A program made the translations under genes and the position numbers. Under the pieces are notes generated by a model that saw only the letters and a program-made list of their open reading frames with translations, did no database searches and was not told where the DNA came from. DNA of 64,000 nt from Escherichia coli (lineage in GTDB: Bacteria > Pseudomonadota > Gammaproteobacteria > Enterobacterales > Enterobacteriaceae), in NCBI RefSeq assembly GCF_044647545.1, contig NZ_CP172818.1; one strand, given 5' to 3'. Of the stretch, positions 33,833-34,885 are shown piece after piece (the first letter of the stretch is position 1; each line of letters opens with the position of its first letter).

Positions 33833-34885
33833 GTGAACATATATATCGGGTGGCTTTTCAAATTAATCCCTTTAATTATGGGCTTAATTTGTATCGCGTT
33901 AGGTGGCTTTGTGCTGGAAAGTTCTGGGCAAAGTGAGTATTTCGTCGCGGGTCATGTGCTGATTTCTCTGGCAGCCATATGCCTGGCATTATTCACTACC
34001 GCATTTATTATCATTTCGCAGCTCACGCGCGGCGTTAATACGTTTTACAATACATTGTTCCCCATTATTGGCTATGCGGGGTCAATTATCACCATGATAT
34101 GGGGTTGGGCACTGTTAGCAGGCAATGATGTGATGGCAGACGAGTTTGTTGCCGGCCATGTTATTTTTGGCGTTGGTATGATTGCCGCCTGTGTATCGAC
34201 AGTGGCAGCGTCATCCGGTCACTTTCTGCTCATTCCCAAAAACGCAGCAGGGAGCAAGAGCGATGGAACACCGGTACAGGCTTATTCGTCATTAATCGGT
34301 AATTGCCTCATTGCCGTTCCCGTTTTACTCACCCTGCTCGGTTTCATTTGGTCTATTACGCTGTTACGTAGTGCCGACATAACTCCGCATTATGTCGCCG
34401 GTCACGTATTGCTTGGGTTAACCGCAATCTGTGCCTGTCTAATTGGCCTTGTTGCCACAATCGTCCATCAAACACGTAATACGTTCTCATCCAAAGAACA
34501 CTGGCTGTGGTGTTATTGGGTTATTATTCTCGGCTCAATCACGGTGCTGCAGGGCATATACGTGTTAGTCAGCTCCGATGCAAGCGTCCGACTGGCTCCC
34601 GGCATTATTCTCATTTGCCTCGGAATGATCTGTTACAGCATATTCTCAAAAGTCTGGCTACTGGCACTGGTCTGGAGACGTACCTGTTCGTTAGCCAACA
34701 GAATACCGATGATTCCCGTCTTCACCTGCCTGTTTTGCCTTTTCCTGGCATCGTTTCTTGCGGAAATGGCGCAGACCGACATAGGGTATTTTATTCCTTC
34801 GCGGGTTCTGGTCGGTTTGGGAGCGGTATGCTTTACGTTGTTCTCAATCGTTTCAATATTAGAAGCGGGTTCTGCTAAAAAATAA
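33833..34885 (+). CDS. yhiM: Inner membrane protein YhiM
   Basis: 350 aa from GTG 33833 (GAGGAG RBS 33821..33826); repeated [YF]VAGHV motifs. Confidence 0.85.
   Translation: MNIYIGWLFKLIPLIMGLICIALGGFVLESSGQSEYFVAGHVLISLAAICLALFTTAFIIISQLTRGVNTFYNTLFPIIGYAGSIITMIWGWALLAGNDVMADEFVAGHVIFGVGMIAACVSTVAASSGHFLLIPKNAAGSKSDGTPVQAYSSLIGNCLIAVPVLLTLLGFIWSITLLRSADITPHYVAGHVLLGLTAICACLIGLVATIVHQTRNTFSSKEHWLWCYWVIILGSITVLQGIYVLVSSDASVRLAPGIILICLGMICYSIFSKVWLLALVWRRTCSLANRIPMIPVFTCLFCLFLASFLAEMAQTDIGYFIPSRVLVGLGAVCFTLFSIVSILEAGSAKK

Follow-up and report, generated by a model that had tools for sequence, protein, structure and literature searches.

YhiM of Escherichia coli, a DUF2776 membrane protein, consists of five tandem copies of a two-helix unit with a conserved motif on each second helix

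Four groups of phenotypes have been published for yhiM of Escherichia coli (acid, heat and low osmolarity, export of gamma-aminobutyric acid (GABA), and copper/Cpx), and the question raised by this locus is what kind of membrane protein could stand behind them. We have studied the gene within a stretch of 64,000 nucleotides of E. coli DNA (assembly GCF_044647545.1, contig NZ_CP172818.1), which we call the window. An earlier sequence-only reading of this DNA correctly took positions 33833-34885 of the plus strand as the yhiM coding sequence and proposed that its product is made of four internally repeated membrane units. The coding sequence opens with GTG, comprises 350 codons plus a stop and specifies an inner-membrane protein of the DUF2776 family whose ten transmembrane (TM) helices form five hairpin repeats; in YhiM, a two-helix unit occurs in five tandem copies that can still be recognised. 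As a rule, membrane proteins reveal their internal repeats only in their structures. In YhiM the repeats are still strong in the sequence, which makes the protein useful for the study of how such folds arise, and the problem of its function reduces to one repeated motif.

The clearest evidence comes from the comparison of the family profile with itself. The profile was built from a family alignment of 89 sequences, which also served for the AlphaFold2 model described below. When it was aligned to itself with hhalign, with no preset unit boundaries, exactly four off-diagonal alignments were obtained and the next had E = 1. The shift by one unit places residues 2-277 on 69-343 (E 7e-23), and the shifts by two, three and four units have E values of 9e-23, 2e-9 and 1e-7. 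Four off-diagonal shifts and no others are the signature of five tandem repeats, and with E values between 7e-23 and 1e-7 the internal repeat is significant by self-alignment, the outcome whose failure would have spoken against the sequence-only reading. Profiles of the single units tell the same story, as all ten of the ten unit pairs align significantly (scores 29-80, E 1e-5 to 7e-17), while 20 controls with reversed columns gave scores of 8-14 and E values of 0.02-0.5. At the level of the single YhiM sequence, Smith-Waterman comparisons between units exceeded plain shuffles with z of 6.6-11.3 in six of the ten pairs. TM segments often inflate alignment scores, and the pairs U2-U4, U2-U5 and U3-U4 are not significant by themselves, so that one might argue for a generic similarity of hydrophobic hairpins due to chance or composition. 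Against this, shuffles confined to blocks of eight residues, which keep the hydrophobic pattern, still gave z of 4.2-9.0, reversed sequences scored much lower than the real unit pairs, the reversed-profile scores stay far below those of real pairs, the four shifts are clean, and the G, G/S, G/A, C and S/T positions agree column by column across the five units. We regard the chance explanation as refuted by these controls and give it next to no credence. The duplication of a two-helix module, as first proposed, is thus borne out by self-alignment, unit profiles and shuffles alike.

The five units follow each other on the plus strand. Unit 1 (residues 1-66, 33833..34030; TM1 3-30, TM2 34-64) is delimited by self-comparison, unit profiles and the AlphaFold2 model, units 2 (residues 67-136, 34031..34240; TM3 70-95, TM4 102-130) and 3 (residues 144-216, 34262..34480; TM5 153-179, TM6 184-214) by unit profiles and the model, and units 4 (residues 217-284, 34481..34684; TM7 220-247, TM8 250-279) and 5 (residues 285-350, 34685..34882; TM9 293-312, TM10 317-347) by Smith-Waterman comparison and unit profiles. 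The helix limits are those of the model, which shows ten long helices with a mean predicted local distance difference test score of 95.2 and a predicted template-modelling score of 0.94. Unit 2 is followed by a long linker in the cytoplasm, in which residues 133-139 form a short helix. The four motifs quoted in the sequence-only reading are all present (residues 35-54, 103-121, 185-203 and 319-337) and sit, as it had suggested, at the start of a helix, namely the second helix of each module. What it overlooked is unit 4 (RLAPGIILICLGMICYSIF, residues 253-271), so that its degenerate fourth motif belongs to unit 5 and the count of units rises from four to five. The regular interval of about 80 residues has to be revised as well: the quoted motifs are spaced by 68, 82 and 134 residues, and the distances from Gly to Gly between successive units are 68, 82, 67 and 66, which gives a true interval of about 66-82.

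Every second helix opens with the motif [FY]-[VI]-[AP]-G-[H/R/hydrophobic]-V-L-x-[GS]-L-[GA]-x-[IV]-C. Its five copies, again on the plus strand, are FVAGHVLISLAAIC (residues 37-50, 33941..33982; G40, H41, C50), FVAGHVIFGVGMIAAC (residues 105-120, 34145..34192; G108, H109, with the Cys shifted by two residues to C120), YVAGHVLLGLTAIC (residues 187-200, 34391..34432; G190, H191 and an invariant C200), LAPGIILICLGMIC (residues 254-267, 34592..34633; G257, a hydrophobic residue in place of His, C267) and FIPSRVLVGLGAVC (residues 320-333, 34790..34831; S323, which is Ala or Ser in the family, R324 in place of His, C333). With the conserved Gly as offset 0 (G40, G108, G190, G257 and S323), the units align column by column: F/Y at -3, V/I/A at -2, A/P at -1, G at 0 (A/S in unit 5), then at +1 His, His, His, a hydrophobic residue and Arg in units 1 to 5, V at +2, L at +3, G/S at +5, L at +6, G/A/T at +7, I/V at +9 and C at +10 (at +12 in unit 2). 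Further down the helix, units 1 to 5 carry A, C, S/C, S and T at +12, and T, T, A, S and S at +15.

How much of this motif is kept in the family was counted over 33 full-length members, made non-redundant at 70% identity. Among the repeated residues, the mid-helix Cys, which the sequence-only reading had not singled out, is conserved best: it is found in 29, 32, 33, 32 and 32 of the 33 members in units 1 to 5 (88-100%), and all five occur together in 26. The Gly-His pair, which had been called invariant, is so for one half only. Gly is nearly invariant (30/33, 32/33, 32/33 and 29/33 in units 1 to 4, with Ala/Ser at this place in unit 5), and His is not, H109 being kept in 28/33 members (85%), H191 in 24/33 (73%) and H41 in 19/33 (58%); at the same position unit 4 has a hydrophobic residue and unit 5 an Arg in 25/33. 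Per member, three His are found in 13, two in 13, one in six and none in one, so that a lack of His conservation, which would have told against the earlier proposal, holds for part of the family; even a close E. coli-like relative has H191Y. Mid-helix Cys are also kept at equivalent places in two odd helices, each seven residues after a conserved Pro (C20 in 27/33, C302 in 30/33), and the seven conserved Cys (20, 50, 120, 200, 267, 302 and 333; window positions about 33890-34831) all lie at helix midpoints. The Cys content of YhiM is 3.7% and the family mean 3.0%, which seems high for a membrane protein.

To place the motif in the membrane, we considered the charges of the loops. Across the family, Lys plus Arg amount to 10.9 in loops 2-3, 4-5, 6-7 and 8-9 versus 2.9 in the other five, which are net acidic. 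This agrees with a published prediction of ten TM helices with both termini in the cytoplasm, and with such a topology each even helix has the start of the motif at its periplasmic end; the His comes eighth in its own helix and the Cys lies at the helix midpoint. Even and odd helices differ in several respects. Conservation is higher in the even helices (2.71-3.07 bits, against 2.05-2.61 in the odd ones, with the exception of TM9 at 2.78), and they are richer in small residues and poorer in Trp (on average 1.1 per protein, against 5.0 in the odd helices). Coincident variable and hydrophobic faces are a hallmark of lipid exposure, and in TM1, TM3, TM5 and TM7 the two faces lie 16-49 degrees apart (periodicity p<=0.017). 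The even helices have a weak variable face opposite the hydrophobic one (110-176 degrees), as would be expected for helices packed by their hydrophobic side with water on the other. Because of their conservation, their small residues, the missing lipid-type variable face and the scarcity of Trp, it seems likely that the motif-bearing helices TM2, TM4, TM6, TM8 and TM10 are the five central helices of the protein, and the odd helices would form a lipid-facing outer ring. TM9 (residues 293-312, 34709-34768) departs from the pattern of the odd helices, being 20 residues long, uniformly highly conserved and free of a variable face (p = 0.8); its role may be to complete the ring where it meets unit 1, or to serve as an oligomer interface.

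Which side chains of the motif look in the same direction? By hydrophobic moment, the +1 residue (His or Arg) of the even helices is off the hydrophilic direction by 5-87 degrees, varying with the assumed helical pitch, and its face also carries +5 (Gly), +12 (A/C/S/S/T) and +15 (T/T/A/S/S). The Cys at +10 lies at -110 to -149 degrees, that is, on the hydrophobic face opposite +1; only C120, shifted to +12, is on the face of the His. Since they occupy opposite faces of the helix, the His and the Cys at +10 cannot belong to a single site. Around a central bundle of five helices, three His, one Arg and five Cys probably take up equivalent places. The sequence-only reading had thought of a metal, proton or small-ligand site: His residues that would share one depth and the polar side of the inner helices are compatible with a ligand site, and are no proof of it.

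The repeated His, and above all a mid-membrane belt of Cys, might constitute a soft-metal site for Cu(I)/Ag(I), with YhiM as a route for copper entry or as a target that senses copper. Such a site would directly explain why the deletion mutant of uropathogenic E. coli (UPEC) contains less copper, specifically so since Fe, Mn and Zn are unchanged (PMC11005409), and the seven conserved mid-helix Cys, the Cys content and up to three His in one ring would suit it. The opposite faces of His and Cys leave no joint site. Copper import is not abolished in the mutant, the copper resistance and the lower copper having been attributed to activation of CpxAR and induction of copA, and the phenotype is absent in K-12 (PMC11005409). 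The family moreover occurs in very diverse bacteria, and six neighbourhoods of homologues held no copper genes. We consider a soft-metal site improbable; the copper/CpxAR phenotype is probably indirect. For UPEC YhiM, the motif MXXXM, of the type found in the copper transporter Ctr1, has been proposed (PMC11005409). It is absent from the allele of the window, in which EEFK precedes the GTG start (33821-33835). The proposed motif corresponds to MGFKM at the extreme N-terminus of another allele, which has two in-frame start codons four codons apart; with the N-terminus inside, MGFKM would be cytoplasmic and before TM1, and it may reflect the choice of start codon more than a Ctr1-like metal site.

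Ten TM helices arranged as five hairpins recall known architectures, and the comparison with them is instructive. The YhiM model appears most like designed single-chain helical barrels and, among natural proteins, like the SLAC1/TehA anion channels (S-type anion channel fold, Pfam PF03595; PDB 3M71, 7WNQ and 9M7S). The designers of parallel alpha-helical barrels had already pointed to the AlphaFold model of YhiM as the most similar natural protein and had described it, independently of our work, as "based on five central helices" (PMC11288890). We judge that the model has the closed ring of parallel inner helices, connected via outer return helices, that makes up the class of single-chain parallel alpha-helical barrels. 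The designed proteins compared (sc-CC-7, 8QAI; MC7BP34, 8U1A; DHR81, 5CWQ; dTor, 6XR1), with TM-scores of 0.46-0.50, are soluble and artificial, have another number of inner helices and share no ancestry with YhiM, so that the likeness is an architectural analogy only. With SLAC1/TehA, which consist of five hairpins in quasi-five-fold symmetry and assemble as trimers, YhiM shares ten TM helices that form five hairpins (by the AlphaFold2 model and the five sequence repeats), short external turns and longer cytoplasmic loops, as well as the membrane orientation and the position of the tight turns. There are also differences. In SLAC1/TehA the odd helices line the pore, whereas in YhiM the even helices appear to be the inner ones, so that the order of the layers would be swapped; the repeats of YhiM are still recognisable in sequence; and no equivalent of the gating Phe of TM9 was identified in YhiM, where F304 and F308 are conserved on a TM9 that is presumably an outer helix. 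With layers that appear swapped and no sequence relation, YhiM is an architectural analogue of SLAC1/TehA and not a demonstrated member of that family. If confirmed, the swapped helix order would mean convergent evolution of the five-hairpin barrel.

What could such a protein do? We lean, at little better than an even chance, towards a two-layer barrel of five hairpins with a core of even helices, channel-like and with a titratable mouth of three His and one Arg. In each hairpin, the odd helix would cross from cytoplasm to periplasm, a tight periplasmic turn would follow, and the even helix would start with the motif. The five hairpins would close into a two-layer helical barrel of quasi-five-fold symmetry, the inner helices of which could pack closely owing to the motif Gly and other small residues. 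Since equivalent positions of a quasi-five-fold barrel share depth and radial orientation, H41, H109, H191, I258 and R324 would line up as a single ring where the inner helices reach the periplasmic membrane interface, all on the polar face of these helices. This face would continue downward as a stripe of Ser, Thr, Cys, Gly and Ala, while one Cys per unit, together with C20 and C302, would form a belt in the middle of the membrane, the unit Cys being on the packing side. Five equivalent hairpins closed into a rigid barrel are more like channels of the SLAC1/TehA kind than like alternating-access carriers, and for this reason we would see in YhiM a channel-like facilitator and not such a carrier. 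Its central polar path would be controlled by the His3-Arg mouth, which would lie beneath acidic periplasmic loops and change its charge at acidic pH. Overexpression of YhiM raises GABA release at pH 2.5-5.5 and the mutant has an export defect at pH 5 (PMC6604978); export at acidic pH fits gating by protonation of His. Precedents exist in the His37 tetrad of influenza M2 and the central His of formate/nitrite transporters, where a pore-lining titratable His couples conductance or selectivity to pH. The analogy would lie in symmetry-related or pseudo-symmetric helices that carry a titratable His. M2 and the formate/nitrite transporters are homo-oligomers with an invariant His, in contrast to the single chain of YhiM with three His out of five positions, an Arg and a hydrophobic residue, and a His conservation of 58-85%; the lumen of YhiM is a presumed one.

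Several observations weigh against this picture. The two layers, the lumen and the clustering of the His are deduced from sequence periodicity and symmetry, and a five-helix bundle rich in Gly and Ala may pack so closely that it leaves no pore. The His are dispensable in part of the family, as the counts per member given above indicate. A protonated His3-Arg ring would favour anions and not the cationic or zwitterionic GABA, so that the published GABA effect may be indirect. A Foldseek search of the model against the PDB gave no significant match (best E 0.08, TM <= 0.5), the TM-score to TehA is low (0.40-0.44), PF03595 does not match at E<=1, and hhalign of the DUF2776 profile with E. coli TehA yields a probability of 0.2%; a profile search of PDB sequences likewise retrieved neither TehA nor SLAC1 nor any homologue of solved structure. 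Finally, the neighbourhoods of six diverse homologues (from B. avium, Nonomuraea and four metagenomes) contain no conserved partner, no gad or copper genes and no functional hint.

An alternative is a role in which the motif Gly, His and Cys are simply packing and fold determinants of a closed bundle, with no pore or ligand site, and YhiM acts as a scaffold or sensor perturbing the envelope. The presence or absence of such a protein would give rise to the activation of CpxAR and to the temperature, osmolarity and acid phenotypes. In line with it, the even helices carry Gly and other small residues all around, and their +10 Cys is on the hydrophobic side, where helices pack; many family members have R, N, S, L, P or F where others have His; the copper phenotype has been put down to an activated Cpx system and induced copA, and not to a loss of import (PMC11005409); and the six homologues showed no transporter-type neighbourhood or operon partner. 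It accounts poorly for the Cys, kept in 29-33 of 33 members at 25-60% identity though Ala, Ser or Gly would pack equally, for the +1 position, which nearly always keeps several polar or charged residues and whose face continues as a Ser/Thr stripe, and for the rise in GABA export upon overexpression (PMC6604978). We hold a purely structural role to be possible but rather unlikely. The symmetry-related residues that the five-fold repeat designates for mutation are H41, H109, H191 and R324, and C50, C120, C200, C267 and C333 together with C20 and C302.

Neither the gene nor its family nor the barrel shape of the AlphaFold model is new, the architecture being in print. We found no mention of the five-fold repeat at the sequence level or of its motif in the YhiM literature searched, and what is new here is this repeat with its register, the proposed Cys belt and His3-Arg ring, and the apparent swapped-layer relation to SLAC1/TehA. 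It is tempting to go further and to speculate, with small confidence, that DUF2776 represents a new, hitherto unrecognised class of natural single-chain, quasi-five-fold membrane channel, an analogue of SLAC1/TehA with another topology, in which the pore helix would be the second and not the first of the hairpin, which would have arisen by five-fold duplication of a two-TM hairpin, perhaps from a homopentameric or holin-like ancestor and at a date so recent that the repeats align to this day at E of about 1e-23, and which would have a His3-Arg gate at the periplasmic mouth and a Cys belt sensing or binding thiophilic metals or redox. The single-unit scans bear on such an ancestor. Pfam models YhiM as one domain of 348 positions, and each unit scanned singly matches only its own segment of DUF2776, besides sub-threshold matches to holin and DUF4079 models, so that these scans give no evidence of a hairpin common to another family. 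The holin matches concern units 1 and 3 (residues 10-63 and 162-214), which hit the two-TM model Phage_holin_5_2 with E of 0.035 and 0.089; they are probably compositional, and a possible lead to a free-standing hairpin ancestor.

The assignment of YhiM to the family is unambiguous, since residues 1-347 match positions 1-347 of the 348 of DUF2776 (PF10951) with E 8.3e-158 and 525.6 bits versus a gathering cutoff of 26.1, and RefSeq annotates the same DNA as yhiM, DUF2776 domain-containing protein; a scan of YhiM with NCBIfam found no matching model. The gene was found in 4261 of 5426 complete E. coli genomes (79%). DUF2776 is a small, patchily distributed family: an exhaustive HMMER scan of 1.84 billion representatives retrieved no more than 256 relatives (E<=1e-3), of which many are fragments, with named members from Escherichia, Bordetella, Crenobacter, Sphingomonas, Hyphomicrobium, Microbacterium, Nonomuraea and others. 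In one metagenomic lineage (locus 4603-5088), the DUF2776 gene lies about 0.9 kb from mscL, the gene of the large mechanosensitive channel; this proximity, seen in one type of neighbourhood only, is suggestive when set against the published low-osmolarity phenotype of yhiM mutants.

With regard to the transcript, the published start site lies 22 nt 5' of the yhiM GTG (PMC6604978), which corresponds to A33811 in the window. Longer open reading frames from the upstream ATGs at 33734 and 33791 (383 and 364 residues) are over-extensions, as transcription starts only 22 nt before the GTG. Downstream, at 34903..34940 of the plus strand, direct reading of the sequence shows an inverted repeat with perfectly matched arms of 11 bp, AAACCAGCGTT ... 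AACGCTGGTTT, around a loop of 12 nt and followed by a T-run; it is the probable terminator of yhiM, and a consensus terminator scan with a loop limit of 8 nt did not pick up this hairpin. The repeat and its T-run fit the reported monocistronic transcript of 1.1 kb, with a stem-loop at the terminator site (PMC6604978). That yhiM stands next to the acid-fitness island, as had been stated, is true in a loose sense only: slp, the first gene of the island, is about 18 kb and 18 annotated genes downstream. Expression of yhiM is reported to be GadE/GadX-dependent (PMC6604978).

A few observations on the surrounding DNA and on variant alleles may be added. Upstream of yhiM, on the minus strand (31984-33534), lies a large AT-rich open reading frame of 516 residues from a TTG start, rich in His, Lys and Asn, which in a matching RefSeq genome is annotated as a DUF4049 protein and adjoins a second DUF4049 paralog, yhiJ. 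In the upstream region of the same E. coli locus, that genome has a hicAB toxin-antitoxin pair between nikR and yhhJ (10385-11016), the hicA toxin of which is annotated as a pseudogene with an internal stop. An open reading frame of 123 residues in another frame inside yhiM (34507-34878, plus strand) is not a genuine gene. In the database, 21 clustered sequences (361 residues) represent a frameshifted YhiM whose C-terminus is read in this very frame (...GIVSCGNGADRHGIFYSF...); such alleles lose repeat unit 5 and are probably inactive.

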